A stretch of DNA of 64,000 bases from contig JBAYKT010000007.1 in the NCBI GenBank assembly GCA_041664445.1, positions 4,360 through 68,359 of the forward strand. The letters run 5' to 3'. Below are positions 15,864-58,600 of the stretch, in pieces. The first letter of the stretch is position 1. The number at the start of each line of letters is the position of its first letter. This DNA is from Patescibacteria group bacterium (lineage in GTDB: Bacteria > Patescibacteriota > Patescibacteriia > Patescibacteriales > UBA12465). The notes under the pieces are model-generated. The model did not search any database and was not told the DNA's origin. It worked only from the letters and a program-made list of their open reading frames with translations. Made by a program: the position numbers and the translations under genes.

Positions 15864-16727
15864 TTACATATTATTTATCTCTTCCCTCAACTCTTCCAAT
15901 TTCTGATTTTCGGGGTTAGCGGCGGCTAATTTTTCAAAATATCTCAGCGCCGATTCCTTATCTTTCCTTATTATACTTAAATCCAAAATTAAATCAAGAT
16001 AACGCGGGCTGCTCGCCTCAAACTCTAAAGCTTCCAAGACATTATCAAAGGCGGCATCGTAATGCCCGGCTAATTTTTCCAGCCAAGCCAAGGAAAAATA
16101 AATTTCCGGCAAACTTAAATCACCCAACATTTTTAAATCATCTTTAAACTGCTTTGCCAATTTTAAGGCATACTCATAAGTCTGGCGCGCTTCTGGGAAT
16201 TTCTTTAATTCTTCATAAATGCCTCCCAGCTTAAAAAAAGCCCCTAAATTTTTCTGATCCAGACTGATAACTTCCACCAGCTTCTCTTCCGCTTCATTAA
16301 ATTTTTCTTTCTTAATTAAATCTTCGGCCGCTGATAATAATTCTTTAATTTGTTTTTGTTTTTCCGGCCAAGGAATTTTAGAACTAACTTTATAACTGAG
16401 TTTCATCTTCTTCAAATTAATATGAGCGGCTTTTAAGGCTTTGGATAAACTAGAATTAATAAACAGAAAAATCCGCCCGAAAAATCCGCCCCATTTTGCC
16501 AGGTCTCTTTCCACGCGCGCCTTAATGATAGTATTTTTAAATTTAGCCTCTTTTTCTCCGGGCAAATTATTAACGTCTAAAATCGCCAAAGCCGGAAACT
16601 TTTTGATAACAATGGCGAGGATAACCGCCACCGAAATTAAAACCAAAATAATAGAAATAATAGTAAGCATGGGTTTAGAGTTTAACGATTGAAGCAAATT
16701 CTTGGACATTGAGACTAGCGCTGCCAA
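15864..16727 (-). CDS. TPR-repeat protein with N-terminal TM anchor
   Basis: TM helix LTIISIILVLISVAVILAIVI followed by TPR-like helical repeats (FNEAEEKLVEVISLDQKN, ARQTYEYALKLA, YDAAFDNVLEALEFE). Start uncertain: the longest ORF overlaps tpiA by 53 nt, and an ATG at 16670 would remove the overlap. Confidence 0.65.
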   Translation of the reverse strand: MAALVSMSKNLLQSLNSKPMLTIISIILVLISVAVILAIVIKKFPALAILDVNNLPGEKEAKFKNTIIKARVERDLAKWGGFFGRIFLFINSSLSKALKAAHINLKKMKLSYKVSSKIPWPEKQKQIKELLSAAEDLIKKEKFNEAEEKLVEVISLDQKNLGAFFKLGGIYEELKKFPEARQTYEYALKLAKQFKDDLKMLGDLSLPEIYFSLAWLEKLAGHYDAAFDNVLEALEFEASSPRYLDLILDLSIIRKDKESALRYFEKLAAANPENQKLEELREEINNM

Positions 16728-17406
16728 TCAGCAAACCATCAATATTTTTTTCTTGTAAAAATTGCGCCGCATTGCCGCCATTAACACTGCCGCCATAAAC
16801 GATTCTTATTTTTTTGCCCAAAATCTTAGCAACTTCGGCTTTCAAGAAAATATGAATTGCTTCCGCTTCTAGCGGAATTATCGGCTCACCGGTGCCAATC
16901 GCCCATAATGGTTCGTAAGCGATAATAATTCCGGAAGAATTTTTAATATTTACATCTTTTAAAGCGCCCTTAACTTGAGCTAATAAAACTTTTTTAGTTT
17001 GTCCGAGCTCTCTTTCATTTAAAGTTTCGCCCACGCAAATGATGGGAATTAATTTAGCTGCCAGGGCCGCTTTTATCTTGGCATTTATCAAATCAGAGTC
17101 TTCTTTCAGAATTAAGCGTCGTTCGCTGTGACCGACAATCACATATTTTACTCCCAATTCATTTAAAGTTTCCGGTGAAGTTTCGCCCGTTAAAGCACCG
17201 CGATTTTTAAGGGCGCAATTTTGAGCACCTAACAACAAATCGCCACCCCGTAAAATATCGACAACCGGTGCAATCGCCAAAAACCCCGGGCAAATAACCG
17301 TATCGTTTTTAGGATTTTTAATTTTTTTCTTCAATTCTTTAGCTAAAATCAAGCTATCTTTAAAGCTTAATTGCATCTTCCAGTTGGCAATAATAATTTT
17401 TTTCAT
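16675..17406 (-). CDS. tpiA: Triosephosphate isomerase
   Basis: IIANWKM (catalytic Lys), GHSERR (His) and AYEPLWAIGTG (Glu) are all present. Start placed at MKKIIIANWKM. Confidence 0.9.
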   Translation of the reverse strand: MKKIIIANWKMQLSFKDSLILAKELKKKIKNPKNDTVICPGFLAIAPVVDILRGGDLLLGAQNCALKNRGALTGETSPETLNELGVKYVIVGHSERRLILKEDSDLINAKIKAALAAKLIPIICVGETLNERELGQTKKVLLAQVKGALKDVNIKNSSGIIIAYEPLWAIGTGEPIIPLEAEAIHIFLKAEVAKILGKKIRIVYGGSVNGGNAAQFLQEKNIDGLLIGSASLNVQEFASIVKL

Positions 17407-17407
17407 A

Positions 17408-18337
17408 TTATTTGCGCTTATTATTTTTAGCCCAATCAATTGTTAGTTTAATTCCGCTCGTCAAATCAATTTTCGGTTCCCAATTTAAAACATCCTTGGC
17501 TCGCTGATGACTCAAACAGCTCCTTCTCTGCTCTCCGGCCTTAGCGGGTTCTTCTTTGATCTTAATTTTTTCGCCCAAGGCGGCTTCGATTCCGGAAATA
17601 ATATCCAACAAACTTGATTCTTGGCTGGTGCTAATATTTATTTCACCTCGACAATCAATTTCCTTGGCCGCACTCAAAGCCTCAACGACATCGGGTGCGC
17701 AAACAAAATCGCGTGTTTGCAGGCCATCACCAAACATTTTACTCTCTAATCCTTTAACCGCGTTATCAATAAAAATAGCAATTACCCCGGCTTCCCCGCC
17801 CTTAAATTGACGTGGGCCATAGACATTGGCAAAACGCAAAATTGTATAATTTAAACCGTAAACCTGATAATAATAATTTAAATATTTTTCAAAAGTTAAT
17901 TTATTGATTCCGTAAGGCGAAAGCGGATAGGTTGGTGCGTATTCGGTTGTCGGAATTTCTTCGGCTTCGCCATAAATCGCGCCGCCAGTGGAAGAAAAAA
18001 TAATTTTTTTGACTTTTTGTAGACGGCAATTTTCTAAAATATTTAAAGCACCGACAACATTAATATCATTATCAAGTTGCGGATTCGCTACGGAAACGCG
18101 CACATCAATTTGCGCCGCCAAATGATAAACAAAATCAAACTGTTCACGCTTAAAAATCTTGGCAATTTTAGCGGAACGAATATCTAATTTATATAACTTT
18201 GCTTTATTATTAACGTAATCTTTGCGTCCGGAAGATAAATTATCAAGCACAACTAGCTCATGTCCTTCGGAAATGAGTTTATCAACTAAATTAGAACCGA
18301 TAAAGCCGGCGCCGCCGGTCACAAGGATTTTAGCCAT
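17408..18337 (-). CDS. NAD-dependent epimerase/dehydratase (UDP-glucose 4-epimerase-like SDR)
   Basis: VTGGAGFIGSNLV Rossmann motif, catalytic Y-x3-K (SPYGINK), 309 aa. Confidence 0.85.
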   Translation of the reverse strand: MAKILVTGGAGFIGSNLVDKLISEGHELVVLDNLSSGRKDYVNNKAKLYKLDIRSAKIAKIFKREQFDFVYHLAAQIDVRVSVANPQLDNDINVVGALNILENCRLQKVKKIIFSSTGGAIYGEAEEIPTTEYAPTYPLSPYGINKLTFEKYLNYYYQVYGLNYTILRFANVYGPRQFKGGEAGVIAIFIDNAVKGLESKMFGDGLQTRDFVCAPDVVEALSAAKEIDCRGEINISTSQESSLLDIISGIEAALGEKIKIKEEPAKAGEQRRSCLSHQRAKDVLNWEPKIDLTSGIKLTIDWAKNNKRK

Positions 18338-18412: not shown

Positions 18413-18889
18413 TTATTTTTCAGTCTCTGAAACATGGCCGGAAAATATTAGCTCACCGAAAAGAATTGTGTCTTGACGATAGAGTTCTGCTTTCCAGCCA
18501 GCATTACGCGTTTTTAAAATTTGCGCGTGCCATATTCTGTCCGATCCGGCAGAAATTAAAACCGTATTGCAGGCTCCCTTGATTCTAAACTTGGTTTCTG
18601 AGTCTGTTTCATTCAAATTAAACAAACGCCAAATATCAGCTGGATCAAGTCCTTGGTCCAAATAAACACACCAATAGCTCAAACAGTTGCTGGTAATTTC
18701 CGCCTTAGCTCGGTAACAATCAACTTTTCTTTCCGGCAAATTAGTAATTAAACCTTCAAGAAACATGTTATTAAACAAGCGACTAGGAGTAATCCCAGCT
18801 TGATGAAAAGCGTCGGCGTAAGAAATAACGCCCACAAATTTCGGCAGCACTATCGTGCCGACGAATTCAATTTGTTCTGGATAATTCAT
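18413..18889 (-). CDS. Hypothetical protein
   Basis: 158-aa ORF, soluble, no motif recognised. Lies 3 nt downstream of the preceding membrane-protein gene. Confidence 0.5.
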   Translation of the reverse strand: MNYPEQIEFVGTIVLPKFVGVISYADAFHQAGITPSRLFNNMFLEGLITNLPERKVDCYRAKAEITSNCLSYWCVYLDQGLDPADIWRLFNLNETDSETKFRIKGACNTVLISAGSDRIWHAQILKTRNAGWKAELYRQDTILFGELIFSGHVSETEK

Positions 18890-18892
18890 GAT

Positions 18893-19309
18893 TTAGCCCT
18901 CTTTAATTACTCGTTTAGTTGATTTTGTTTCTTCTAAAACGTTCTGGGAATTTTCCATCCAAGATTTAAGCCAACGACGGTGATTAATCAAGCCAATAAA
19001 AAACACAACAACAAATATGGCAGCCTCAATAATAACAATAAGCGACGGCTGACCGGGAAACGCCGAATTAGCAGTCCAGAAAACTACGGCAACCACGACG
19101 GTTGGCGCTATCAGGCCAAAAATGGAAAAAATCCAAACATCTTCCACTAAATTAAAAGCGGAAAATAAGAAGCGCGGCGACATGGTCGCCAAACAGATTA
19201 GCAAATCTTCTTGCCTATGGCTACCGTTTTCTAAAAACACTACCACAGCAAAGAAAATTCCGAATACAAAAAGAATCCAGGAAAACATCCAAATCATTTT
19301 TTTAATCAT
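18893..19309 (-). CDS. Hypothetical membrane protein (4 TM)
   Basis: 138-aa ORF with four hydrophobic helices. Confidence 0.5.
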   Translation of the reverse strand: MIKKMIWMFSWILFVFGIFFAVVVFLENGSHRQEDLLICLATMSPRFLFSAFNLVEDVWIFSIFGLIAPTVVVAVVFWTANSAFPGQPSLIVIIEAAIFVVVFFIGLINHRRWLKSWMENSQNVLEETKSTKRVIKEG

Positions 19310-22076: not shown

Positions 22077-22101
22077 AATAAAAAAAATAATTATAAAAAA
22101 G

Positions 22102-22129
22102 CCGTTTCTGAAAAAGAAACGGTTTTTTT
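22102..22129. terminator. Bidirectional rho-independent terminator
   Basis: CCGTTTCT (22102-22109) pairs with AGAAACGG (22115-22122), loop GAAAA, T7 run downstream and A6 run upstream. Sits between convergent genes. Confidence 0.7.
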
Positions 22130-22152: not shown

Positions 22153-22410
22153 TCAAGTAAACCAACCCTCGGTAAAACCAAGACCCAGTTTTTTTTCAAA
22201 TACGCAACCCCTATCTTTCATTTTTGGTTGCGAACGAATGAAATCCAATGGTTTGAAAAGATCAATTTGGTGGCCATTTTTGCCGTTATTCATAAACGAA
22301 CCAAGGCCGCCTCTCATAAAGATTTCAAAATCTACAATGGTCACGCCACCGCCGACCAGGATTCCTCCTTGAGGAATACCAAAGCCGATTTTTATATTTC
22401 TATTTTTCAT
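22153..22410 (-). CDS. Hypothetical Gly-rich small protein
   Basis: 85-aa ORF whose ATG overlaps the stop of the upstream iPGM-like gene by 11 nt, an operon-like arrangement. No motif recognised. Confidence 0.4.
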   Translation of the reverse strand: MKNRNIKIGFGIPQGGILVGGGVTIVDFEIFMRGGLGSFMNNGKNGHQIDLFKPLDFIRSQPKMKDRGCVFEKKLGLGFTEGWFT

Positions 22411-23302
22411 CTACTAAACTAATGCCAGACATGCCGGCGTCTTTTTCTATACCCATTAAATTTAAAATAGTCGGAGCAATATCTGATAAACTGCCGGCCG
22501 GAGCCAATAAACTCAAATCTCCGTTCGGAGCATCTTTAAAACCGATTGTTTTACCTTCAAAATCATGACCGATAATAATTAGAGGGACTGGATTGTCAGT
22601 AATGTTTTTATCAGGCAGGTCGGTCACCATATCCTTCAGGCGCTCGGCATTGCCGGCGCTAGAAGAGATAATTAATATGCCTTGATGGTCTAAAACTTCC
22701 GCGGCTAACGATTTAAGAGCTTTATCTAAAGCTTCGGCTGTTTTAACAGTTTCGGCAAAATCTCCACTAGCGGCCATAATATCTAAAGCTGAACAAGCGG
22801 CGACAATAAAATTATATTTTCTACTCTTAACAGCCTTCACTGATTCACGAAAAATTCTTTTTAAAGCCAGAAGAACATTAATCTCCTGTTTGTCGTCTTC
22901 CAGAGAAATAGAAAGCCAATCCTCGCCAATCAGACGTTCTTCGCGACGGCCATTAAAAAAACTGCTCAAAGCCGCCAAACGTTCACTATCAAAAATTTTC
23001 AATTGTTTTAAACCGGCATCGGAAATTATGGAACTTAAATCTTTGCCGACAGCCTGTGTTTCATCGCTAACGGCGAGTCCACTGCCTAAAATTAAATAAC
23101 GCGCATTAATATTAAGCGCGTTGGCTTCTAAAATAGCGGCCGGATATTCTTTAGCCATTTTAGAAAAATTAGGAATACGAGCGCTGCTAATAGCGTTGGC
23201 TTCATTTTTTTCAGCAATCCCCCAGCCATCAAGCAACAACAAAAAAACTAAATTGGATTTAGAACTTAAATCAGGATTGTCGGACGCTTCATTTTTTTCC
23301 AT
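22400..23302 (-). CDS. Truncated, degenerate cofactor-independent phosphoglycerate mutase (iPGM)-like protein
   Basis: LLLLDGWGIAEKNEANAIS..ARIPNF aligns to the iPGM N-terminus. GLKQLKIFDSERLAALSSFFNGRREE, NPVPLIIIG and DIAPTILNLMGI align to the iPGM C-terminal phosphatase half. At 300 aa it lacks the ~230-aa transferase insert of the ~510-aa canonical enzyme. Confidence 0.7.
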   Translation of the reverse strand: MEKNEASDNPDLSSKSNLVFLLLLDGWGIAEKNEANAISSARIPNFSKMAKEYPAAILEANALNINARYLILGSGLAVSDETQAVGKDLSSIISDAGLKQLKIFDSERLAALSSFFNGRREERLIGEDWLSISLEDDKQEINVLLALKRIFRESVKAVKSRKYNFIVAACSALDIMAASGDFAETVKTAEALDKALKSLAAEVLDHQGILIISSSAGNAERLKDMVTDLPDKNITDNPVPLIIIGHDFEGKTIGFKDAPNGDLSLLAPAGSLSDIAPTILNLMGIEKDAGMSGISLVDEK

Positions 23303-24554
23303 AATTTTCTAAAATATCAGCAATTTCCATTAAGCGATTATACTTTACTACCCGTTCTCCTCGAGATAAAGAACCGGCCTTAAGATAATCTGCCCCCAGA
23401 GCTACCGCTAAATCCACCAGGAAATCATCAGTAGTTTCCCCGCTGCGCTGAGAGACAATAATTTTAAAATTATGCTTATTGGCCAATTTTACACAATCCA
23501 CAGCCTCCGTCAAGGTGCCAACTTGATTTGGCTCAATAATAATGGAATTAGCAGCCTTTTCTTGAATGCCAAGACGCAAACGATCAATGTTAGTGGTAAA
23601 TAAGCTGTCGCCGGCAATCATTAACTTGTCTCCCATTTCGGAAGTTAAATTGCGCCAATTCTCCCAATCATTTTCAGCTAGCGGATCTTCTAAATAAATA
23701 ATCGGATATTTTCTTAACCAAGAATCATATAAACCGACAAGATTGGCGGCGCTAAAATAAGTTTTATCCAAGGGAAAAATATAACGCTTAGTTGTTTCTT
23801 CAAATAAAATATTGGAACCAATATCAATCCCTATCCACATATCTTTACCAGGGTTATAGCCAGCACGAATCGCAGCCGCTAACATAAATTCTATCGCTTC
23901 AATGCTAGAATCTAAATTAGGCGCATACCCGCCCTCAGAACCAGTGTCAGTATCATAACCGGCGGCCTGTAGTTCTTCTTTAAGGGCATAAAAAATCTCC
24001 GCGCCCTCGCGAATCATTTCCGCAGCGGTATTTTTTTTCGGAATAAGTAAGAATTCTTGAAAATCCAAATTAGTATCAGCATGAGTTGCGCCATTAAAAA
24101 TATTAAAAAACGGCACGGGAATCTTCGGCGCCGCTAAGGAGTAGGTTTCTTGTAAGTAGGAAAACAATTCTTGCTTCTGACTCAAGGCGCCAGCGCGGGC
24201 GCAAACCAAAGAAACGGCCAGAGTAGAATTGGCTCCCAAATGGCTCTTATCATTAGTGCCATCAAGTTCAATTAACTTTTTATCAATGGCTTCTTGTTTT
24301 AAAATATCAAATCCAATAAGCGCCGGGGCGATAATTTCCTTTATTTTAGTAAGCGCCTGCAAAACACCGCGGCCCTGATAACGTTTTTTATCGCCATCAC
24401 GCAACTCAAAGGCTTCATAAGTTCCGAGCGCCAAACCTCCAGGAACACTGGCCTTAGCCTGCAAGCCATTATCCAGCAGGATGCTAGCTTCAATCGTCGG
24501 CCAGCCGCGAGAATCTAAAATTTCTCTAGCACTTAAATTTTTTATTTTTGGCAT
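23289..24554 (-). CDS. eno: Enolase homologue (non-canonical active site)
   Basis: Full-length similarity to enolase: REILDSRGWPT, ELRDGD, QEF, SEGGYAPN, LEDPLAENDW, NQVGTLTE, RSGETTD, KYNRLMEI. Several catalytic positions are substituted (see findings). Confidence 0.85.
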   Translation of the reverse strand: MPKIKNLSAREILDSRGWPTIEASILLDNGLQAKASVPGGLALGTYEAFELRDGDKKRYQGRGVLQALTKIKEIIAPALIGFDILKQEAIDKKLIELDGTNDKSHLGANSTLAVSLVCARAGALSQKQELFSYLQETYSLAAPKIPVPFFNIFNGATHADTNLDFQEFLLIPKKNTAAEMIREGAEIFYALKEELQAAGYDTDTGSEGGYAPNLDSSIEAIEFMLAAAIRAGYNPGKDMWIGIDIGSNILFEETTKRYIFPLDKTYFSAANLVGLYDSWLRKYPIIYLEDPLAENDWENWRNLTSEMGDKLMIAGDSLFTTNIDRLRLGIQEKAANSIIIEPNQVGTLTEAVDCVKLANKHNFKIIVSQRSGETTDDFLVDLAVALGADYLKAGSLSRGERVVKYNRLMEIADILENYGKK

Positions 24555-24564
24555 AAAGAAAAAA

Positions 24565-25740
24565 TTAAACTACAATTTTTTTAAGTCCCGGCATTGGCGC
24601 TCCACCCAAATAGGAAAGCATGGCGCCACCGGCCGTTGAAACCCAATCGACATATTCCATCATCCCCGTCATCTTCAAAGCAGACACTGTTTCACCGCCG
24701 CCAGTAACGCCATAAGCGCGACCTCGAGAACGAGCGGCAATTATCATAGCTAAAGAAATGGTGCCATTTTTAAAATGGGGGTCTTCAAATTTACCCATCG
24801 GACCATTCCAAATAATAGTATTGGCTTCTTTGATATATTCGGCGTATAGACTGACGGTTTCTGGCCCAATATCAAAAATGCAATCGGTTTTGGTAACAGC
24901 ATCAGCCTTCTTGGATAATATTTTTCCATTTTTAGTTTTAACAACCACATCTAAAGGTAAAATAATTTTTTTATCGCGAGCCTTGCCGTTTAATAATTTC
25001 TTAACGACCAGCATTGAACCGGCATCAAATAATGATTTTCCAATTTCTAATTTTTTAAACTTTAAAAAATTATTAGCTAGACCGCCACCCAAAAGAATAT
25101 GGCTCGCCTGCGGATAAAGCTTGGCGATTAAAGCCGCTTTGGTTTCTATCTTAGCGCCGCCCATCATTACTACCAGAGGTTTTTTGGGAACTAATATTTT
25201 ATGCAAAGCTTTAAGTTCTTGTTCTAATAAAATTCCGGCATAAGCAGGCAGATAATCTTTGATAGCCGCAACCGAAGTCTGGGCGCGATGGGAAACAGCG
25301 AAAGCATCATTAACATAAATATCCGCTAAAGTGGCCAACTGTTTCGCAAAAGCCTTATCATTTTTAGTTTCTCCTGGATTAAATCTAACATTTTCTAAAA
25401 ATAATATTTCCCCGGCCTTCATTTCATTAACAGCCGCTTCAACCTTGGGCCCGACAATGGCGGGCACAAATTTAACCTTTAAATCCGCTATTTTGGCTAG
25501 ACGCGCCGCTAAAGGCGCGGTTGATAAAGATTTAAGAGTTTTACCGTTTGGCTCTCCCAAGTGCGTAATGATTATCAGCTTAGCGCCTTGAGACGATAAA
25601 TATTTTATTGTTTCCAAGCCAGCGCTTATTTTATAATCGTCTTTAATTTTTCCCTTTTCTAGTGGGACATTAAAATCAACCCGTACTAAAAATTTCTGAT
25701 TACTAATTTTTTTTAAACGGCTAATAGAATTAATTTTCAT
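24565..25740 (-). CDS. pgk: Phosphoglycerate kinase
   Basis: RVDFNVPL, LENVRFNPGE, DAFAVSHRA, GGAKIETK, WNGPMGKFE, GGGETVSA, STAGGAML. Confidence 0.9.
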   Translation of the reverse strand: MKINSISRLKKISNQKFLVRVDFNVPLEKGKIKDDYKISAGLETIKYLSSQGAKLIIITHLGEPNGKTLKSLSTAPLAARLAKIADLKVKFVPAIVGPKVEAAVNEMKAGEILFLENVRFNPGETKNDKAFAKQLATLADIYVNDAFAVSHRAQTSVAAIKDYLPAYAGILLEQELKALHKILVPKKPLVVMMGGAKIETKAALIAKLYPQASHILLGGGLANNFLKFKKLEIGKSLFDAGSMLVVKKLLNGKARDKKIILPLDVVVKTKNGKILSKKADAVTKTDCIFDIGPETVSLYAEYIKEANTIIWNGPMGKFEDPHFKNGTISLAMIIAARSRGRAYGVTGGGETVSALKMTGMMEYVDWVSTAGGAMLSYLGGAPMPGLKKIVV

Positions 25741-25752: not shown

Positions 25753-26910
25753 TTATTTTTCTTCTCCTAACTTGAGGGTTACCTCTTTTTCGACACCGTC
25801 TCTAATATAAGTTAATGTAATATTGTCTCCAGGATTAAAAGAAGCGACAATATCAGCTAAATCATTATTGGCGTCCAGCGCCTGATTATTAACCCAGCTA
25901 ATAACATCCCCCTCTTGCAAGCCGGCGCTAGCGGCCGGACTGTTTTTAACAACGGCCGGCAAGGCCTCTGAACTATGGAGCCAGGCGCCCTTCTCTAAAT
26001 TTAAGCTTAAAGATTTGGTAGTGCTTAAATCTAAATAATTGACTCCCAATAAAGGCTGGGAAGCGGACCCGGTTTTAAAGAAACTCTGCCAATAAGAATT
26101 ATAGGAAAAAGCGGGAACGATTTCTTTGTCTTCACCAATAATCGCCACCAAATCTCCGGCTAAATTAAAGACAAAAGAATTTTTAAATTGATCTTCCGGT
26201 GTTCCGGCTAACGTGAATCTAGTGTTTAAGGAATCGCTGCTAAGTACGGTCGGCGTTTTTTTAAACGAAGAAAGCGATGTTAACAGCACATTGCTAAAAT
26301 CGTTAATCGCTAAAACAGACTGCCCCAAAGAAACATCGGTGCGCGCAACAATTTTTTTAACCGTTAAATTATTGGCGGCTTCCAAATGAAAGAAAATTAA
26401 ATCGCCCGGTAAGTTATCGAAATCCGAAATTTTATCTATTTTATAAACTTTGCGGTCACTGGTAATAGCCACAAAGTTTTTAACATTAAAGTTTTTCTTA
26501 AAATCTGCCGGCGCGGAAATAGCTATCCAGCCGTCAGCGGTAACTGCTAAGCCGACCAGCAGCGGTTCATCCAATTTATAATATTGCGTGGAGGTAGATT
26601 TTTCATTAGTCGTGAGTGTCTTGAAAACACCGACTAAAGACGGCCGCAACGAGCCGATAGTCTCGCCAACCTTAACATCTTGATTAACTACCACTTTTTT
26701 AGCGTCTTGAATGATTAAATTGGAACGGTTGTTGTTTAGGCTGGCTAAATTAACTTCGTTGTTAAAATAAGGAACGGAAAAATCTTTCAAAAAATAAACT
26801 CGGGTCACAATTTCTCCGGCCGCGCCGGCGATTAGTCCCAAAAAAATCGCTAAAATAATTACCGGCAACAGTCGATGCTTGTTATCTTTTGTAGTAACTG
26901 GGGTGTTCAT
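25753..26910 (-). CDS. Membrane-anchored HtrA-like protein with C-terminal PDZ domain (protease triad apparently degenerate)
   Basis: N-terminal TM helix (LLPVIILAIFLGLIAGAAG), a trypsin-fold-like middle region, and a PDZ domain (AGLQEGDVISWVNNQAL...GDNITLTYIRDGVEKEVTLKLG). No GNSGGP or TNxHV motifs are visible. Confidence 0.6.
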   Translation of the reverse strand: MNTPVTTKDNKHRLLPVIILAIFLGLIAGAAGEIVTRVYFLKDFSVPYFNNEVNLASLNNNRSNLIIQDAKKVVVNQDVKVGETIGSLRPSLVGVFKTLTTNEKSTSTQYYKLDEPLLVGLAVTADGWIAISAPADFKKNFNVKNFVAITSDRKVYKIDKISDFDNLPGDLIFFHLEAANNLTVKKIVARTDVSLGQSVLAINDFSNVLLTSLSSFKKTPTVLSSDSLNTRFTLAGTPEDQFKNSFVFNLAGDLVAIIGEDKEIVPAFSYNSYWQSFFKTGSASQPLLGVNYLDLSTTKSLSLNLEKGAWLHSSEALPAVVKNSPAASAGLQEGDVISWVNNQALDANNDLADIVASFNPGDNITLTYIRDGVEKEVTLKLGEEK

Positions 26911-43440: not shown

Positions 43441-43512
43441 GGTCTCTTCGTCTAACGGCTAGGACGCCAGGTTCTCATCCTGGTAATAGGGGTTCGATTC
43501 CCCTAGGGACTA
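43441..43512 (+). tRNA. tRNA-Glu (anticodon CTC), integration target
   Basis: GGTCTCT-TC-GTCT-AACGGCTA-GGAC-G-CCAGG-TTCTCAT-CCTGG-TAAT-AGGGG-TTCGATT-CCCCT-AGGGACT-A. The acceptor stem has two G-U pairs. Confidence 0.85.
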
Positions 43513-43513
43513 C
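43468..43513 (+). repeat. attL core (within the intact tRNA-Glu)
   Basis: caggttctcatcctggtaataggggttcgattcccctagggactac is identical to 58546-58591. Confidence 0.9.
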
Positions 43514-43543
43514 AGAATAAGAAATGGGCTAAAAGCCTGTTTT

Positions 43544-44659
43544 TTATTGGGTTTTTTGAAGTATTTTAGTTTCCAGTAAATCAGAAACTAAAATATTTTT
43601 ATCATTAATTATCGGAGCGGTGACTAAATGTTGACCAAAATTATTAGCCAAGGTCTCAACCGCACCCCTTACAGCTTGAGCGGTTAGGTGAGAATAGCGC
43701 ATTGTTGTCTTAATGTCAGCATGTCCCAGTAACTCTTTAATTAGAACAATAGAAACCCCATTCTGAGCTAAGTGAGAGGCAAAGGTATGTCTTAAGGTGT
43801 GCCAACCTATTTTACGCAACCCAGCTCGGTTACAGGCTCGGTGCAACCAGTTTAAACATAAAACTGGATTAAGATGATTGCCGTCTTTATCAAAGGCTAT
43901 CCCATGCTTTTTGGCCCTTAAAATAATAAGCTCTTTAACATCTCCCAATAATGGGACATATCTAATCTTGTTACTCTTAGGACTTCCCAAATGCCCCCTA
44001 GCGATTGATTTCTGAACAGTTAATAGATTGCCCTTAAAATCAATATCATTCCATTCTAAGGCAATTAACTCTCCAAAACGAAGCCCAGTTTTAAGACCAA
44101 AAAGAATCATCTCTTTTAACATCCCGTCAGAATTATCTAATAATAACTGACATTCCTCTGAACTAAGAAAATCAAATTTTTGCGGCTGAACCTTTAGAAG
44201 TTTAACTTTAGGAGTATTTTGAATTATTCCCCATTCTTGAGCAGTATTAAAACATTTGTTTAGAACAATTAAATGATTGTTAACACTTTTATTAGACTGG
44301 CCTGACTGTATTTTATTAGCCTTATAGTTTTCAATATCTAGGTTACTAATTTTATCTAATTGTTTTTGGCCAAAGAATGGATTTAAATGGGCCCTAAGTA
44401 AACTTTCTTTATTTAGAATTTCTGAATATTTATTATTGTTCTTAACATACACTTCAAGCCAATTATCAGAGAATTCTTTAAAAGTTGGGACTGCCTTTTG
44501 CTCTTCTACTATAGGCTCTCCGCGTGCTAGCTTCTGTCGCAATAAAGCCTCATAAGCCTTAGCCCCGGCCTGAGTATTCTGCGGGCTAAGTTTACGATAT
44601 CTTTTATTTTGGCAATAAATACTTACCCAGTATTTATTCTTATTTTTATAAACGCTCAT
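43544..44659 (-). CDS. int: Tyrosine recombinase / phage-type integrase
   Basis: N-terminal SAM-like domain. Catalytic domain with GLRFGEL (Arg), HTLRHTFASHL (H-x-x-R) and LLGHADIKTTMRYSHL (His/Tyr). Confidence 0.92.
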   Translation of the reverse strand: MSVYKNKNKYWVSIYCQNKRYRKLSPQNTQAGAKAYEALLRQKLARGEPIVEEQKAVPTFKEFSDNWLEVYVKNNNKYSEILNKESLLRAHLNPFFGQKQLDKISNLDIENYKANKIQSGQSNKSVNNHLIVLNKCFNTAQEWGIIQNTPKVKLLKVQPQKFDFLSSEECQLLLDNSDGMLKEMILFGLKTGLRFGELIALEWNDIDFKGNLLTVQKSIARGHLGSPKSNKIRYVPLLGDVKELIILRAKKHGIAFDKDGNHLNPVLCLNWLHRACNRAGLRKIGWHTLRHTFASHLAQNGVSIVLIKELLGHADIKTTMRYSHLTAQAVRGAVETLANNFGQHLVTAPIINDKNILVSDLLETKILQKTQ

Positions 44660-44667
44660 ATAATTTA

Positions 44668-44865
44668 TTAGACGACTGCATCAATACGAGCATTATCTAT
44701 ATACTTTTCAATATCAGATATTTTAAATCTCAAACTGCCACTTATTTTATAAAATGGTATTTTGCGTTTTTCTATTAATCTATACACCGAAGGCTTGGAC
44801 ATTCTTAAAATTGAAGCCAGCTCATCAGGTGTTATTAAGTTGTTCGTATTGGAAACGTCGTTCAT
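44668..44865 (-). CDS. xis: Excisionase-family HTH DNA-binding protein
   Basis: 65 aa. LITPDELASILRMSKPSVYRLIEKRKIPFYKISGSLRFKISDIEKYI is the HTH_17/excisionase pattern. Located directly upstream of int. Confidence 0.8.
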   Translation of the reverse strand: MNDVSNTNNLITPDELASILRMSKPSVYRLIEKRKIPFYKISGSLRFKISDIEKYIDNARIDAVV

Positions 44866-44966
44866 TTAGTTATTAAGGAGCGATATAAGGCGAGTTAATT
44901 AAAACTCGTAGACAATATCGATCCTAACATATTTTTATGAGAATTTACATATTTTTGTTTTCCAGC

Positions 44967-45410
44967 TTAGTATTGACTTAGCTGTTTTTGGTCTGAATCA
45001 CCGTGTTTTAAAAAGGTATTTTTAAAATATTCATTAACATAAGCATTGCGAGCCGCGTATTCTGATGCTGGGTCAATTGTCTGATTATCATTAAACATCC
45101 CTAAAGACTTACCTATCGCAATAATGGCTTGGAGTTTGGTGCTGTCTGATTTAGCTTCCTCGGCTAGTTGTTTTAATTTTGCTAAAACATAGTTGGCATC
45201 TAGCTCTAAAACAGCAAATCTCTCCTTTAGATACTCCCGGATCTTAGCGTTCCTGAGCAATCTTGAAGCGTTAACGGCTGCCGTATTATCATCAAGTTCT
45301 TGACCATACACGGCCTTATAAGCAATCGTCCCATTTCGATTGGAGATTATATACTGCTCGGCAAATATGATTTGCTTATCAACTATTTTTGGTTTATTAA
45401 TCTGATTCAT
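44967..45410 (-). CDS. Terminase small subunit-like protein (P27-family-like)
   Basis: 147 aa. KQIIFAEQYIISNRNGTIAYKAVYG...AAVNASRLLRNAKIREYL matches the N-terminal HTH pattern of small terminases. Confidence 0.55.
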   Translation of the reverse strand: MNQINKPKIVDKQIIFAEQYIISNRNGTIAYKAVYGQELDDNTAAVNASRLLRNAKIREYLKERFAVLELDANYVLAKLKQLAEEAKSDSTKLQAIIAIGKSLGMFNDNQTIDPASEYAARNAYVNEYFKNTFLKHGDSDQKQLSQY

Positions 45411-45413
45411 AAC

Positions 45414-45599
45414 CTTGTTATTTGTTAACTGCTTGTTAAATATTCTTTAACAAATAAATTTGTTTAATATTAGTTAATTACGATTTCAGGTTATTAAAAT
45501 TCCCCAGAAGAAGGTGATATATCTTGGTTTACTAATAAACCAAGAATATTCTTCTTGTTAACTTGTTAACCTATATATAGATATTAACAAGTAACAAGC
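45414..45599. repeat. Iteron-like repeat cluster ((C/T)TTGTTAA(C) in both orientations) plus a 9-bp-stem hairpin
   Basis: Direct copies of TTGTTA(A) start at 45415, 45422, 45433, 45555 and 45563; TTGTTTAA starts at 45461. Inverted copies lie at 45447-45454 and 45583-45599 (two adjacent). Hairpin CTTGGTTTA-CTAA-TAAACCAAG at 45523-45544. Confidence 0.6.
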
Positions 45600-45601
45600 T
45601 G

Positions 45602-46696
45602 CTAAGAGTTTATAAAATAGTATTTAGCCTTGCCTTGTTGGCTGACATCAATTTTATTCTCTGAAACTAATTCTTTTAGGGCAATTCTGATATTACTAAT
45701 ACCCGCATTTGATTTTTCTTCTAAGTCCTTAACAGTGGCTCCCTGGCTAGAACTCAAGGATTCCATAATATAAATTTTAGCCTCTTCAACCTTTTTCCCT
45801 TTCTCCTCAACTTCTCCCAAATATTCCCAATTTATCTGGTCCGTTTCTTGGTTATTAAAAACTTTAAATGATATCTTACCGTCCAAACGAAGTGAACTTC
45901 TGGCTTTCTCCTGGCTAACGGTAACCTCTAAAACTTTATTACCTAATTCATCTTTATAATTTTTACTATCCAAAAGAAGATGAGAGGAAACTTTGGCAAT
46001 TATTTCCGAACTCCCACGGCTAGATGATTGGCTCAATTTTTCGCCCTTTTGTGGCTTGCGATGATGATGAAGGTAAATCACGGAGACTTTAGTTAGCCTA
46101 ATTAATTTTAGTATCTGCTTATTTACAGCCTTCATCGCGCCAGAGTCATTTTCTTCCTTGTCATGAATCTCTGTAAAAGTATCAAAAATAATCACCTTAT
46201 ACTCATTTTTAACTATTAAAACAACTAAGCGAGCAAAATCTGAGGGGTCCGTTATCATAAACCTTTGATCAATAATGTAATTTATGGGAATATCCTTATC
46301 TATTAACTTTTTGAATCTTGTTACGATTTCATTCTTATTCATCTCTTGATCAATAATAAGAATACGGCTTTGCTCGACTTCATATTTGTTAAATAGCGGT
46401 AATCCTGCAGCTATATGATATGCCAGAATAAGGGCAAACAAACTTTTACCTTTACCGGAGTCAGCCGTAATTGAAGTAACCGCTTCTTTAGGAATTAATG
46501 GATTAATTACAAAAAACTCTGGCTGAACTTCATATGCTAATAATTCTTGGCAAGTAGAAATTACGAGTTCATTTTCGCTTTCTCCTAAATTATTATCTTC
46601 TTTATCAATATCAACCGATTCATCGAAACCTTCTTGCTCAAGAATATTCTCACCTTTAGGCACTTCATAATTATTTAAATTGGTAATTATTTCCAT
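45602..46696 (-). CDS. RepA-like RecA-fold ATPase (AAA_25 type) with C-terminal winged-helix domain
   Basis: Walker A ADSGKGKSLFAL, Walker B RILIIDQE, VIYLHHHRKP, and a C-terminal wHTH-like ATVKDLEEKSNAGISNIRIALKELVSENKI. Confidence 0.7.
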   Translation of the reverse strand: MEIITNLNNYEVPKGENILEQEGFDESVDIDKEDNNLGESENELVISTCQELLAYEVQPEFFVINPLIPKEAVTSITADSGKGKSLFALILAYHIAAGLPLFNKYEVEQSRILIIDQEMNKNEIVTRFKKLIDKDIPINYIIDQRFMITDPSDFARLVVLIVKNEYKVIIFDTFTEIHDKEENDSGAMKAVNKQILKLIRLTKVSVIYLHHHRKPQKGEKLSQSSSRGSSEIIAKVSSHLLLDSKNYKDELGNKVLEVTVSQEKARSSLRLDGKISFKVFNNQETDQINWEYLGEVEEKGKKVEEAKIYIMESLSSSQGATVKDLEEKSNAGISNIRIALKELVSENKIDVSQQGKAKYYFINS

Positions 46697-46756
46697 ATAA
46701 GTCTCTAATCACGCGGCAGAGAACGGATTAATACCGCCCTCTGCCGAAAAATTATT

Positions 46757-47014
46757 TTACTCCTCGGTACCATAGAATATGCTCGTCACCTCTCTGTCTG
46801 GTAAATCTAAAAATTTTCCACAAATAATATCATCCAAATGGCTCCGAAGTGATCCAAATGAATTTTCTGAAACAAACCACTTTTTCTCCCAAAACATTTT
46901 TGGAAGTTTTTCCTTTAGTACTGAGAAAAGCTTATTATTTGCTTTAATGACTTCTTTAGTTGCATCTCCTATAATTTTCCACTCCTCTAAACTTAGCTCT
47001 ATATTTTTATTCAT
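46757..47014 (-). CDS. Hypothetical small protein (island)
   Basis: 85-aa ORF upstream of the RepA-like gene on the same strand. Confidence 0.45.
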   Translation of the reverse strand: MNKNIELSLEEWKIIGDATKEVIKANNKLFSVLKEKLPKMFWEKKWFVSENSFGSLRSHLDDIICGKFLDLPDREVTSIFYGTEE

Positions 47015-47330
47015 ATATTTATGAAATTAATAATTAATTTGTTATTCGAGAGGCTTCGCAACCTATCGATAGACCGCGAAGCCTAGTTGTCTCGAATGGA
47101 AACATTTTGTTTCCTTTGTATAGACCTCGTCAGCTAAATAGATATTTCCAAAATGAGTTAAATTTCTAAAATACACAGAACTTTAGAGATTCAGCATTCA
47201 TTCCAGAAATTATAAATTCATGGGCCTCGATATGTAATCCTATCCTTCATAAAGTAATTTAGCTCGTTTATAAACAATTCAATAATTTCGTTAGTCTTCA
47301 TACTATATATGCACGAAATTTCGCTTAAAT

Positions 47331-47365
47331 AAAAAAAATCCACTAATTTTAAATGAATTAGTGGA
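47331..47365 (-). terminator. Rho-independent terminator of the 48867-47398 operon
   Basis: TCCACTAATT (47339-47348) pairs with AATTAGTGGA (47356-47365). A T8 run follows on the minus strand (plus-strand A-run 47331-47338). Confidence 0.75.
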
Positions 47366-47397
47366 ATTATACTCGAAAAAACGCAGGCGAAATTTCG

Positions 47398-48228
47398 TCA
47401 ATGATTATTTAAATAAGTCTTTGGGTTTATTTCTGATATATTTCTATCTTGCCAGGATTCTCTAAATTCAGGAGATGGAGAAAGTTTTATTTTTATCTGA
47501 TATGCATCGTTATCTTTAAGATATATTATAGGGCTATCTTTAAGGCCAAAATATTTCCTTAATCTTTTTGATAAATCCTGTATATCCTTTTTAAATGTTT
47601 CTTTCTTAGTTTTATTACCAGAAAAAGAATTTAATTTTATACAGCCATTCTGAGTAGAAAACAAAATAAGGGCCCCCCAGCTTTTTACATAAGCCATTTT
47701 TTGAGAACTATCCTGTCTAGTATCAGCAAAACCGAGCTTATCATAGCTAGAGTCTTCTTCTTTGCCATCTACCGTTAACTTAACATCGCACTTATTTTTA
47801 AACGTAATACTTACATTTTCCCATTCTTTTGTTAATTCTTTCACATAAGCCGCTCTGTCTTTAATCGAATATTTATTATAAATATTATAAAAATCTTTAT
47901 TAACATTAACCGAGTAGCGATGCATCGGGGTTGCATATCCCTCGTCAGGTCTTGGCCAATTATCACACTCGACATCAAGGCTTATATCTCTTGAATTTTC
48001 TTTTATAATATGAATAATTTTTTCATCAAATAGCTTTTTAAGCGCAAGACAAAAAACATGAGTAGTTATTTTACACATTTCTATATCACCCATGCTCAAT
48101 GCGATGTCAACATGATCCAATCCCTTGTCGTCATTCAAAAAATGACGCTTGTTAGCATCAAGCTTTATTTTTATAATATTTAAAACAGATAGAACCTGCT
48201 TATCAAAATTAAAATCCATATTTGGCAA
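47398..48228 (-). CDS. Hypothetical protein (island orphan, 276 aa)
   Basis: Long ORF, last gene of a tightly spaced 3-gene operon. No motif recognised. Confidence 0.55.
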   Translation of the reverse strand: MPNMDFNFDKQVLSVLNIIKIKLDANKRHFLNDDKGLDHVDIALSMGDIEMCKITTHVFCLALKKLFDEKIIHIIKENSRDISLDVECDNWPRPDEGYATPMHRYSVNVNKDFYNIYNKYSIKDRAAYVKELTKEWENVSITFKNKCDVKLTVDGKEEDSSYDKLGFADTRQDSSQKMAYVKSWGALILFSTQNGCIKLNSFSGNKTKKETFKKDIQDLSKRLRKYFGLKDSPIIYLKDNDAYQIKIKLSPSPEFRESWQDRNISEINPKTYLNNH

Positions 48229-48232
48229 CTAA

Positions 48233-48535
48233 CTAACCTTCATTTCTATGTTTAATAGAATAGATTAATAAAGCTCCACATAGAAATATTATAGCATCAT
48301 ATGTCCAAATTTTCCTATACAGCGATCGGCTTGAGTTTGCGTCCATTTGAGTAGCCATATTAATCATTGAGACTGTGGCTGCTCCAGGAGTTTCAGATAC
48401 TATAGAAAAAACCGTTGGTTTTTTACTATATTCGGCTCTCAAATAGCTTGTTATGAAAATCATCGATGTAAAAACTAATAACGTGATAATAATTAATAAA
48501 TATTGAAAAATTATTCTTTTAATTTTTTTAAACAT
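48233..48535 (-). CDS. Small membrane protein, 2 TM (island orphan)
   Basis: 100 aa. TM helices IIFQYLLIIITLLVFTSMIFITS and AIIFLCGALLIYSI. Confidence 0.5.
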   Translation of the reverse strand: MFKKIKRIIFQYLLIIITLLVFTSMIFITSYLRAEYSKKPTVFSIVSETPGAATVSMINMATQMDANSSRSLYRKIWTYDAIIFLCGALLIYSIKHRNEG

Positions 48536-48561
48536 ATTTTTATAAATAGAGTCTTTTATTG

Positions 48562-48867
48562 TTAATTTTTAAGTAATAGCTGATCAAGGCCAATAGAGTC
48601 TTCTATTTTCTTCTTTAATTCTTTCGCCAAATTCTCAGGAACTAATAAATCTAACTCTCGCTCATAGTAAATGCTTAGAACAAAACGGGCATTACTAACA
48701 TTGGCAATATTCATCCACTCAATCTCACCGTCTTTATCTGTTATATTTTTGCCATTACAAAGAAACGTTTCAATAAAACTCTCGACATCCTTTTGAATAG
48801 CCTCATTATACGTTAGGCCTTTTCCATTTAGCCCATCAAATTTAGTTATTGGTATGTATCTAACCAT
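48562..48867 (-). CDS. Hypothetical protein (island orphan, 101 aa)
   Basis: First gene of the 3-gene operon. No motif recognised. Confidence 0.5.
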   Translation of the reverse strand: MVRYIPITKFDGLNGKGLTYNEAIQKDVESFIETFLCNGKNITDKDGEIEWMNIANVSNARFVLSIYYERELDLLVPENLAKELKKKIEDSIGLDQLLLKN

Positions 48868-49111
48868 AAAAATAAATATTAAAATAACACAAAAGGTCCC
48901 CCGACACGATTAACACACCCTTTCGGATATGCGCCTAGATAGCGAAAATCGGTCAGAAGACCATCTCTGCTATCTAGGACTTTAAACCATGCCTTAATAA
49001 ATTAAGGTTTAGGTTAATTCAATTGTTCTTTTATTATCCAATAAAATTGGGTAATAGTCAATTTTTATTAAATATATTTAATTTTAAAAATCTTTATTAT
49101 ATAATATATTT

Positions 49112-49318
49112 ATGAGTAAAATTTCTATACAAGATACAAAGCTTCTATCATTAAATGATTTAATGCGGATATTTAGTATATCAAAAACAACTGCCTACAG
49201 AATTGTTTATGGCAGAAAAATACCTTTTTATAAAATAAATCGCAATATCAGATTTGCCGAAGAGGATGTTATTAATTATTTAAATAACAATCGTGTTGAA
49301 CAGATAAAGAATAGATAA
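49112..49318 (+). CDS. Second excisionase-family HTH protein
   Basis: 68 aa. LSLNDLMRIFSISKTTAYRIVYGRKIPFYKINRNIRFAEEDVINYL is a paralogue of the 44668-44865 product. Divergent from the 3-gene operon. Confidence 0.75.
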   Translation: MSKISIQDTKLLSLNDLMRIFSISKTTAYRIVYGRKIPFYKINRNIRFAEEDVINYLNNNRVEQIKNR

Positions 49319-49460
49319 ATTATTCTATACTATTTTGCGGTCACAACGCAGAAATGCGTGGCAATACAGGGCAAAATGTTTTAGAATTTTTTAATAAAAT
49401 ACCGCCTAGGTCGAGGGTGGTATTTTTTTAATTATTTAATATAACAACCCGATCAATAAT

Positions 49461-49676
49461 CTAGCGTTTGCTTAAAGTAACCAAAAATATCAATATAATC
49501 CCAACAAATATAAGAATCCCTAAAAATTTAACAAATCTTTTATATACCGCTTCTAACACATCATGGGCTATAGTTTTTAGTAATATAAGAATCCGTTTAA
49601 TCAGCTTAAACGGGGCCAATATAATTATGAGTATAATATCTATCCAGCCATAACCAGTTGTATAACTTTTTTTCAT
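49461..49676 (-). CDS. Small 2-TM membrane protein
   Basis: 71 aa with two hydrophobic helices and a basic C-terminus. Confidence 0.4.
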   Translation of the reverse strand: MKKSYTTGYGWIDIILIIILAPFKLIKRILILLKTIAHDVLEAVYKRFVKFLGILIFVGIILIFLVTLSKR

Positions 49677-49782
49677 ATATGCAATTAAAATTTAAATAAC
49701 AAAAAAATATAGCATAATTACTATATTTTTACAAGTTAACTATAAATATATTTGCAAAAATGCCAGCAAGACCGACTAGGCT

Positions 49783-49950
49783 TTAATTTTTATGTTTTGT
49801 CTTATCGACTAACGTAAATTTCTTAGCTTCGCCTTCGTAAGGAGGAACGCGATCTCCTCGTGAAAGAGTAATCTCTTTTCGAGAACTGGCCGGTCGATAT
49901 TGACCCGACACTTTCGCTACCCCTCCAGTACTTACCTGTACTTTAGGCAT
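49783..49950 (-). CDS. Possible 55-aa small protein (below track cutoff)
   Basis: My own translation gives MPKVQVSTGGVAKVSGQYRPASSRKEITLSRGDRVPPYEGEAKKFTLVDKTKHKN*. Locally GC-richer, non-low-complexity sequence, reminiscent of YjzC-like small proteins (weak recollection). No SD seen. Confidence 0.35.
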   Translation of the reverse strand: MPKVQVSTGGVAKVSGQYRPASSRKEITLSRGDRVPPYEGEAKKFTLVDKTKHKN

Positions 49951-50345
49951 ATGACTTGAAGTTAACTAATGAATTAATAGAAGCGTCTGACCTTTAATCC
50001 GCCTCCCCAACTACAAACCTTAGTGAGATTTGCAAGTGGAGAGCGATTAAAGTGAGCTAGACTAAAAATTCAAAAGAATGGCTTCGATCTTTTTCTTGCT
50101 GGCGTTTTTATAAACAAAATTAATTAAACATACCTTTAACGATTATTCTTTATTTTTCAAAGCATCTATGACGTCATTTGTATTATGATCCCCCCATCAG
50201 AAAGAATTTTTAACATCGGGAGCATTATTGTTTCAAAACTATTTGGAATTGGCATATATTTATTTTTTATATACTAATTAAATCTTTATCTCTATATAGC
50301 GTTATACGTTTTGTGAAGCTGGCAATACAAAAGAAAGTGGTGAAA

Positions 50346-51543: not shown

Positions 51544-51580
51544 TTTATTTTATATAGTAACTTATATATTTTTAAAAAGA

Positions 51581-52450: not shown

Positions 52451-52643
52451 ATTTATTTTTTTTAACTATTTGAAATTCTTTTTGCAAAAATATTAAATCT
52501 TTTTCTAGGTTTTTTAATATATTAATATTAGTTTTTTCTAATTCTTTTTTATTAATATTTTGTTTAACTAAACTTAAAATAGTCGCAATTGTTCCAAAAT
52601 AATCTTTTGATTCTATGTGAAATTTTATAGACTTTATGCTCAT
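52443..52643 (-). CDS. Small helical protein (66 aa) immediately downstream of hsdS
   Basis: ATG lies 25 nt after the hsdS stop. Coiled-coil-like K/E/L-rich sequence. Confidence 0.45.
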   Translation of the reverse strand: MSIKSIKFHIESKDYFGTIATILSLVKQNINKKELEKTNINILKNLEKDLIFLQKEFQIVKKNKYE

Positions 52644-52668
52644 TCTTTTAACATTTTATTTTAAATAA

Positions 52669-55702: not shown

Positions 55703-55703
55703 A

Positions 55704-58591: not shown

Positions 58592-58600
58592 GTAATAAAA

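Follow-up and report, generated by a model that had tools for sequence, protein, structure and literature searches.

The closest described relative of the protein discussed here is the cofactor-independent phosphoglycerate mutase (iPGM) GpmI, whose catalytic apparatus, known from the Bacillus stearothermophilus structures 1EJJ and 1O98, consists of Ser62 and two Mn sites, and whose substrate-binding arginines all lie in the transferase domain (1EJJ). The gene under study occupies positions 22400 to 23302, on the minus strand, of a 64,000-nucleotide stretch (the window in what follows; positions 4,360 to 68,359 of contig JBAYKT010000007.1, assembly GCA_041664445.1) from a Patescibacteria group bacterium, and encodes an iPGM-like protein of 300 amino acids (aa) that we call the short protein. 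It shares with GpmI (TIGR01307) the PF01676 fold domain, the place in a pgk-eno cluster and the equivalents of Asp12 and Asp403; unlike GpmI, it lacks iPGM_N, Ser62, His407, Asp444, His445 and His462, carries an additional insert (the DLS insert) and reaches about one third of the family cut-off score. The description that fits it best is a pseudoenzyme that has lost a domain and belongs to gpmI2, a Patescibacteria-specific lineage of second gpmI copies not named before, whose full-length members (for example in our loci L069, 9035-10627, and L086, from 9074) are the direct ancestor type: they have in common with the short gene the DLS insert, the position after eno or eno-gpmI1 and the closest sequence similarity, and differ from it by their length of about 527 aa, by nine intact catalytic or ligand positions and by a score of 632 bits on TIGR01307. 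To judge from this score, gpmI2 presumably encodes an active phosphoglycerate mutase (PGM). The archaeal-type mutase apgM and the phosphopentomutase DeoB have the same core fold and the same binuclear-metal ancestry as the short protein, but in both the metal ligands and the nucleophile are still present, as are cap domains of their own.

The reading we favour, at a probability of roughly 0.6, is that the short protein is a selected, non-catalytic pseudoenzyme of the iPGM family, co-selected with the neighbouring enolase, and that the conversion of 3-phosphoglycerate (3-PG) to phosphoenolpyruvate (PEP) has been catalytically abandoned at this locus. Taken separately, the claim that the protein is not a PGM, yet functional and selected, is very probably right, and its descent from the gpmI2 paralogue, not from the housekeeping gpmI, is even more probable; that it acts together with the enolase-like protein is held only tentatively. 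The gene and its two diagnostic parts are:

22400-23302, minus strand: iPGM-like (short) gene, 300 aa, alkaline-phosphatase-fold phosphatase domain only, in all likelihood a degenerate gpmI2 descendant.
23042-23080, minus strand: deletion junction, residues 75-87, GLAVSDETQAVGK, a linker at the place of the ~230-residue phosphotransferase domain.
22502-22567, minus strand: DLS insert, residues ~246-267 including D262-L263-S264, shared with full-length gpmI2 and absent from gpmI1.

The sole Pfam match of the short protein is PF01676 (Metalloenzyme), which covers it end to end (residues 19-287, E 3e-29); the Pfam scan of its 300 residues returned no iPGM_N (PF06415) transferase domain and no regulator, DNA-binding or signalling domain. 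Its match to TIGR01307, the NCBIfam equivalog model for gpmI, falls into two separate stretches and reaches 123.6 bits, where the cut-off is 330.65. The phmmer alignment with B. stearothermophilus iPGM (1ejj/1o99) falls into two blocks, residues 19-60 matching 6-47 and residues 88-297 matching 316-509, so that the transferase domain is supplanted by a 13-residue linker, which stands for B. stearothermophilus residues ~48-315 in the alignment with full-length relatives, is in frame and has a constant length across the short family. An AlphaFold model built with 25 family members in the alignment (pLDDT 87.5, pTM 0.89) finds its best Foldseek matches among solved iPGMs, over the phosphatase domain only (E ~1e-18, query TM ~0.8). 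These results bear out the sequence-only reading, a first inspection of the letters that had recognised two pieces of the iPGM phosphatase domain and the absence of a ~230-aa phosphotransferase insert. The scores on the other PF01676 families lie far under their cut-offs (18.2 bits against 320 for apgM, TIGR00306; 12.6 bits against 254 for phosphopentomutase).

The catalytic positions, in B. stearothermophilus numbering, read as follows in the short protein:

Asp12: D25, kept.
Ser62: Ala67 or Ile65, depending on the alignment, lost.
His66: Y69, changed.
Lys336: R108, changed, still basic.
Asp403: D174, kept.
His407: A178, lost.
Asp444: S215, lost.
His445: A216, lost.
His462: I234, lost.

Two of the seven metal ligands are left (D25 and D174), the phospho-acceptor Ser62 is gone, and the two Mn sites (Asp12, Ser62, Asp444 and His445 for one; Asp403, His407 and His462 for the other) are not intact. 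The GNSEVGH motif has become INARY, and the residue aligned to Ser62 varies across the clade. The changes first read in GNSEVGH, NPDMVGHSG and ADHGN agree with this residue map, in which no intact set of metal and Ser ligands is recovered and which adds to them the loss of His462 and the retention of Asp12 and Asp403. Judged by its residues, the short protein cannot use the iPGM mechanism.

The short form is widespread. A word-indexed homologue search gave 747 matches, the best 120 of which were inspected: all are 281-315 aa long with PF01676 only, all come from Patescibacteria, the named ones being Falkowbacteria and Magasanikbacteria, and they are annotated as gpmI at JGI and as hypothetical at NCBI. 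When 1.8 billion representatives were searched exhaustively with a profile, 2115 relatives emerged. Among GTDB species, each scanned through one genome, there were 418, of which the best 80 loci were taken with 10-kb flanks and, together with six earlier loci (L001-L006), made 86 loci in all; their open reading frames (ORFs) were called and sorted locally with phmmer, and the catalytic columns were then read. The spread of the 300-aa form, which the sequence-only reading had left to be surveyed, includes 62 loci of the window's type (type C, below), all with eno as a neighbour. Many public metagenome-assembled genome (MAG) records with this Patescibacteria-type block are titled 'uncultured Gammaproteobacteria', 'Candidatus Nanoarchaeia archaeon' or 'Candidatus Saccharimonadales' (L014-L017, L019, L020, L027-L029 and others; L059; L009); these titles are probably taxonomic mislabels.

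Across 25 short members (45-88% identity), the mean column identity is 57% and 32 positions are invariant; the same in-frame architecture recurs in no fewer than 59 distinct, species-level relatives, which come from independent assemblies and reach down to 35% identity. About 40 columns are conserved at 90% or more among the type-C short proteins, mostly inherited structural residues together with D25, D174, Q100, E107 and E220; D25 and D174 are conserved at 92% or more, and three conserved switches are specific to the clade (Gly to Arg68, His to Tyr69 and His to Ala111). The ratios of nonsynonymous to synonymous substitution rates (dN/dS, Nei-Gojobori) between the window and its three closest orthologues are:

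short iPGM-like gene: 0.046-0.137.
pgk: 0.054-0.090.
tim: 0.039-0.064.
eno: 0.014-0.054.

Against L007 and L008, respectively, the values are 0.046 and 0.069 for the short gene, 0.059 and 0.054 for pgk, and 0.039 and 0.064 for tim, and dS for these two closest pairs is 0.67-0.90, which is unsaturated. The short protein is under housekeeping-level purifying selection, on a par with pgk and tim. Both the loss of essential residues and the long-term retention under purifying selection expected of a pseudoenzyme are present, and the original suggestion of a non-catalytic or repurposed protein expressed from an eno/pgk operon is supported by the missing domain and ligands, by the coupling to eno and by this selection. 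It is scarcely credible that the gene would be a neutral remnant about to disappear, or a full-length gpmI broken artificially by an assembly error or a frameshift: the lost catalytic residues and their variable substitutes would fit a remnant, but a dN/dS of 0.05-0.07 at such a dS, the identical architecture of so many distinct sequences and the conserved columns do not. A frameshifted or fragmentary gpmI, which the first inspection had named as an outcome that would overturn it, is refuted by the presence of the same short in-frame form in the best 120 homologues and in 62 syntenic loci. Furthermore, since the short gene overlaps eno, the flanking frames have no room for, and no remnant of, a transferase domain.

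The origin of the short gene can be followed through three types of locus. In type A (15 loci, such as L069, L074 and L086), the order is pgk-eno-gpmI1-gpmI2; both copies are ~520 aa long, have an intact DSHKDHDHH signature and pass TIGR01307 (554 bits, and 632 bits for gpmI2), and an insert of ~16 residues with the motif xDLSL, after the NPVP strand, is found in the second copy only. In a few loci (L070, L080), gpmI2 stands alone after eno. Type B (3 loci: L006, L059 and L067) has the order eno-gpmI1-short; the short gene has the same insert and Ser62 is replaced in all three (by Cys, Leu or Lys), the L006 protein having all metal ligands and Cys for Ser62 and those of L059 and L067 being already degenerate. 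Type C (62 loci, 59 distinct sequences, the window included) reads pdz-pgk-eno-short-(variable)-duf212-gyrB...tim. The insert of the short protein lies between the NPVP strand and the C-terminal GxLxDxAPT helix; D262-L263-S264 is conserved at 97% or more in 59 short proteins and at 95% or more in 20 full-length gpmI2 proteins, and the insert is absent from 18 gpmI1 proteins. The short gene thus has the two marks of the gpmI2 lineage, the xDLSL insert and a place directly downstream of eno or of eno-gpmI1, and the degenerate short clade is nested inside the insert-bearing forms in the neighbour-joining tree. It is on account of the series from A through B to C that we attribute a paralogous ancestry to the short gene. 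A split enzyme with a separate gene for the transferase domain is rejected, no match to this domain being found in the window or in ~20 kb around any of the 62 type-C loci.

The scenario we propose combines five events. A tandem duplication of gpmI would have been followed by the gain of the DLS insert in the second copy (gpmI2), which, in one lineage, would then have dropped its transferase domain, its Ser nucleophile and five of its seven metal ligands while gpmI1 was still adjacent. The disappearance of gpmI1 from the locus would have left pdz-pgk-eno-short, and the enolase of the window's sublineage would finally have lost K342, H370 and its Mg-II serine loop.

Two observations on related forms are added here. 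Tandem full-length, apparently active iPGM genes follow eno in L069 (7429-10627), L074, L086 and 12 other type-A loci; the hosts are Kuenen-, Uhr- and some Falkowbacteria, which keep two copies in genomes of ~1 Mb. Transferase-less iPGM forms of ~300 aa with all metal ligands occur in L006 (8001-8912), L005 (1203-2120), P0162, P0166, P0178, P0194, P0226, P0229 and P0260, several with Cys for Ser62; that of L005 adjoins sugar-nucleotide and glycosyl-transfer genes, not glycolysis. Such forms may be stand-alone phosphatases.

The enolase homologue encoded immediately upstream of the short gene has itself lost catalytic residues:

23289-24554, minus strand: eno homologue, 421 aa; SGASTG changed to GGLALG (G39, A42), with D318S, K342E and H370Q (E. 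coli numbering).

In enolases, Lys345 (yeast; K342 in E. coli) is the general base, the replacement of which abolishes activity, Ser39 ligates the second Mg and His373 contacts the substrate. In the window, the codon of K342E is GAG (23532-23534), H370Q lies at 23448-23450, and the sequence reads IIIEPNQVG where canonical enolases have IKxNQ; Lys345, His373 and the Ser39 Mg-II loop (yeast numbering) are all missing. Because the general base, the Mg-II serine and the substrate-contact histidine are replaced, the window enolase is very probably inactive, although it passes TIGR01060 (491 bits against a cut-off of 300) despite K342E. All locus enolases were aligned with a sequence that we take to be that of E. 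coli enolase, which agrees with the type-A and type-B enolases at every site read, and 15 catalytic or ligand sites were compared. The 15-site signature is canonical in 16 of 16 type-A/B loci; among the 59 distinct type-C enolases, 33 are altered, in 20 distinct patterns, and 26 are canonical (Fisher p = 2.5e-5 for type C against A/B, ignoring phylogeny). Some of these patterns are:

window, L001, L007: S39G, S42A, D318S, K342E, H370Q.
L004, L046: D246N, D317S, S372G.
L057, L061-64: H159Y, H370A, S372G.
L029, L036: E209L.

At columns invariant in types A and B, type-C enolases have on average 8.5 substitutions in 101 columns, against 1.05 in 44 for pgk, and the window itself has 11 in eno and none in pgk. 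The decay of the enolase only where gpmI1 is gone, pgk and tim being untouched, is as predicted by a loss of flux through PGM. K342E is common to the window, L007, L001/L008 and L009; since L007, L008 and L009, with which the window was compared, all carry it, the enolase dN/dS of 0.014-0.054 reflects constraint after the catalytic loss. Elsewhere in the window (59857-61341), a 494-aa protein is recognisable only by a C-terminal mobile (phosphohistidine) domain of PEP-utilising enzymes, without the catalytic domains of pyruvate phosphate dikinase or PEP synthase; given the dead enolase of this genome, it may have a bearing on PEP metabolism.

In the mechanism we favour, the steps from 3-PG to 2-phosphoglycerate (2-PG) and on to PEP would not be catalysed by this locus in the window's sublineage, and the enolase-like and iPGM-like proteins would be retained as a pair, co-produced in stoichiometric amounts, that serves in binding or as a scaffold (moonlighting). 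This role would be non-catalytic and probably joint. The contact or ligand surfaces of the short protein would likely be the former active-site pocket (D25, R68, Y69, R108, D174) and the DLS loop. Reportedly, PfkA has been linked with PGM and enolase in B. subtilis by two-hybrid (Commichau et al., 2009). Two described systems give this mechanism some context. The cyanobacterial iPGM (iPGAM) has a unique 17-residue loop, which is joined through a beta-strand to the last His ligand and needed for activity, and which, with a C-terminal tail, modulates the binding of the regulator PirC (bioRxiv 10.1101/2024.10.28.619893). The DLS insert lies at the same structural site, right after the beta-strand that follows the last His ligand; since the iPGAM loop there affects PirC binding, a protein-contact element at the DLS site is plausible by analogy. 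However, iPGAM is full length and active, and no PirC-like partner was identified for the short protein. For the enolase, moonlighting in RNA-degradosome-like networks (RNase E in E. coli; RNase Y, PfkA and Eno in B. subtilis; PMC8152036) offers a precedent for retention through protein-protein interactions, with the difference that the E. coli and B. subtilis enolases are active, whereas the base of the window enolase is replaced and no RNase partner was identified in the loci.

Several observations weigh against the favoured reading or limit it. The catalytic inactivity of the short protein is deduced from its residues, and the near-invariance of D25 and D174 may leave room for residual single-metal or ligand chemistry. 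In mirror-tree analysis, the partial correlation between the short protein and enolase (0.51) is no higher than those with duf212 (0.52) and pdz (0.64), so that the co-evolution signal of the two is not distinctive; the distance matrix of the PDZ protein correlates best with that of enolase (partial r 0.76). A physical complex between enolase and the short protein is a candidate only. Finally, 26 of the 59 type-C enolases have the full catalytic signature, which is why enolase catalysis, and hence a source of 2-PG, may persist in part of the clade.

This last observation bears on the most serious competitor, which is possible although it strikes us as rather unlikely: a complete, unlinked PGM (gpmI, apgM or the cofactor-dependent dPGM), and perhaps a second enolase, would be encoded elsewhere in the genome, glycolysis would be intact and the altered enolase and short protein would form a neofunctionalised spare set. 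This explanation concerns the metabolic context and is compatible with a non-catalytic short protein. The sequence read amounts to ~77 kb of a source contig of 150,297 bp, on which the window was placed at ~83.2-147.2 kb (the 64-kb window with 10 kb to the left and 3 kb to the right), and relatives were read at ~20 kb each, including ~20 kb of the complete relative CP066698.1 (977 kb), whose orthologue is 88% identical and whose enolase has K342E as well; such coverage leaves space for an unlinked gene, the canonical type-C enolases imply a supply of 2-PG in their genomes, and some Candidate Phyla Radiation (CPR) bacteria carry an archaeal-type apgM (Jaffe et al. 2020, PMC7304191). On the other hand, CPR genomes measure ~1 Mb with little redundancy, and no PGM-type domain appeared in the sequence covered: the 64-kb window has no RHG[EQ] motif of dPGM, no second iPGM homologue and, in its remainder, no relevant Pfam match to another PGM, and the 13 kb of flanks have no dPGM, second iPGM homologue or apgM. 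The repeated, independent loss of enolase catalytic residues only in genomes without gpmI1 is what an absence of PGM flux predicts. A weak point of the same tendency is that the gpmI1 of L059, the nearest, used as a protein-database query, retrieved no type-C contig among the best 120 of ~8000 matches. The sequence-only reading had itself considered that the PGM step is performed in some other way and called for a search for dPGM or a full-length GpmI; the search was negative for the stretch just described and speaks for that stretch only, and the idea is weakened for this genome because enolase, which acts next, is itself without its general-base lysine and further catalytic residues.

It is improbable that the short protein would instead be a sensor or regulator independent of enolase, its pocket (D25, R68, Y69, R108, D174) binding a metabolite with a phosphate or carboxylate group (3-PG or 2-PG, for instance) and signalling through another partner. 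In favour of this idea, D25 and D174, the Arg68 and Tyr69 switches and the basic residue at the Lys336 site are conserved whether the neighbouring enolase is canonical or not; but the substrate-binding arginines of iPGM belong to the deleted transferase domain, the short protein has no domain of a regulatory kind, and its universal linkage is to eno.

More remote still is the idea that the short protein remains a PGM or a phosphatase through a new, transferase-free mechanism, perhaps one that relies on Ser264 in the DLS loop and on the two conserved Asp residues. It occupies the usual place of gpmI in the operon, the neighbourhood showed no other PGM, D25, D174 and S264 do not vary, and many type-C enolases look active. 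Against these points, the nucleophile and five of the seven metal ligands are lost with substitutes that differ between species, the TIGR01307 score is 124 bits against 331, the enolase decays downstream, and a degenerate short gene coexists with a canonical gpmI1 in L059 and L067. Moreover, the full-length gpmI2 proteins, with a Ser62 of their own, conserve S264 just as strictly, so that it is not a replacement nucleophile.

The selected pseudoenzyme that we favour is embedded in a compact operon. The start codon of the short gene (ATG, 23302-23300) is set 14 nt into the 3' end of eno, where the overlap reads AATTATGGAAAAAAATGA (AAT TAT GGA AAA AAA TGA), and its stop overlaps the next ORF by 11 nt, as the first inspection had noted. 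In 60 of the 62 type-C loci, the short gene follows eno at a spacing of -38 to +35 nt, ORF starts having been assigned mechanically, so that some overlaps may be overestimated. The surrounding features are:

24565-25740, minus strand: pgk, phosphoglycerate kinase, apparently intact (Pfam PGK, E 3e-126), 10 nt upstream of eno.
25753-26910, minus strand: pdz gene, membrane-anchored DegP/HtrA-like PDZ protein, conserved opening gene of the pdz-pgk-eno-short block; it ends 12 nt upstream of pgk.
22153-22410, minus strand: small Gly-rich ORF of 85 aa, whose start overlaps the stop of the short gene, upstream of the operon terminator.
22095-22122, minus strand: terminator-like hairpin (22122-22102) and T-run, CCGTTTCTTTTTCAGAAACGG then CTTTTTTATA, ending the co-directional gene run.
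16675-17439, minus strand: tim, triose-phosphate isomerase, with the ANWK, GHSERR and AYEPLWAIGTG motifs intact (Lys, His and Glu kept).

The 85-aa ORF has no Pfam or NCBIfam match, and its tblastn matches are confined to the closest relatives (L007, 91%; L001/L002/L008, 79%; L012, 56%), for which reason it is rejected as a conserved partner of the short protein. In the PDZ protein, the recognisable parts are the PDZ domain and the end of the protease domain only, and its trypsin-like catalytic part may therefore be degenerate too. Between gyrB and an epimerase gene, at 18413-19309, the window has two ORFs (158 aa, and 138 aa, membrane-like) that are absent from the 88%-identical relative L001; in L004 a 158-aa gene holds the same place. 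In L033 and L055, the gyrB ORF reaches 1118 aa, an excess of ~430 aa over the other loci (~680 aa) that points to an intein or some other insertion.

At a distance from the operon, the window contains a genomic island of ~15.1 kb (43441-58601) integrated at a tRNA-Glu gene (43441-43513). It is bounded by a direct repeat of ~46 nt that matches the 3' half of the tRNA (43468-43523 and 58546-58601), has a low GC content (28-33% against ~39%), and carries a tyrosine integrase (43544-44659), numerous orphan ORFs and all the genes of a type I restriction-modification system (HsdS 52669-54288, HsdM 54257-55702, HsdR 55704-58073).

In the literature consulted, our search found no description of an iPGM pseudoenzyme, of tandem gpmI genes in CPR bacteria, of an inactive CPR enolase or of a PGM in Falkowbacteria. 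A CPR-wide survey used a manual threshold of 92.9 bits for PGM (PMC7304191, Table S2), which the short protein, at 123.6 bits, would pass and hence count as a PGM. Pipelines that count the short protein and the window enolase as working glycolytic enzymes are probably wrong. Indeed, CPR metabolic reconstruction scores the presence or absence of hidden Markov model matches, and 'lower glycolysis present' is probably overcalled for a sizeable clade, because the short protein passes this threshold, JGI names it gpmI and the enolase passes its thresholds without its base. A bolder extension, which we regard as doubtful, is that an entire Patescibacteria clade (Falkowbacteria and relatives) has converted PGM and enolase, at their original site, into two non-enzymes that are co-transcribed, co-selected and share a new role; sugar catabolism would then end at 3-phosphoglycerate after the ATP-yielding PGK step.

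In conclusion, the series from type A through type B to type C is an unusually complete record of the birth of a pseudoenzyme, in the order of a duplication, the gain of an insert, the deletion of a domain and the loss of ligands in the spare copy, the loss of the working copy and the decay of the next enzyme of the pathway. Two dead enzymes, kept under housekeeping-level selection and in tight translational linkage, point to a testable non-catalytic function in organisms whose biology is for the most part inferred from annotation.

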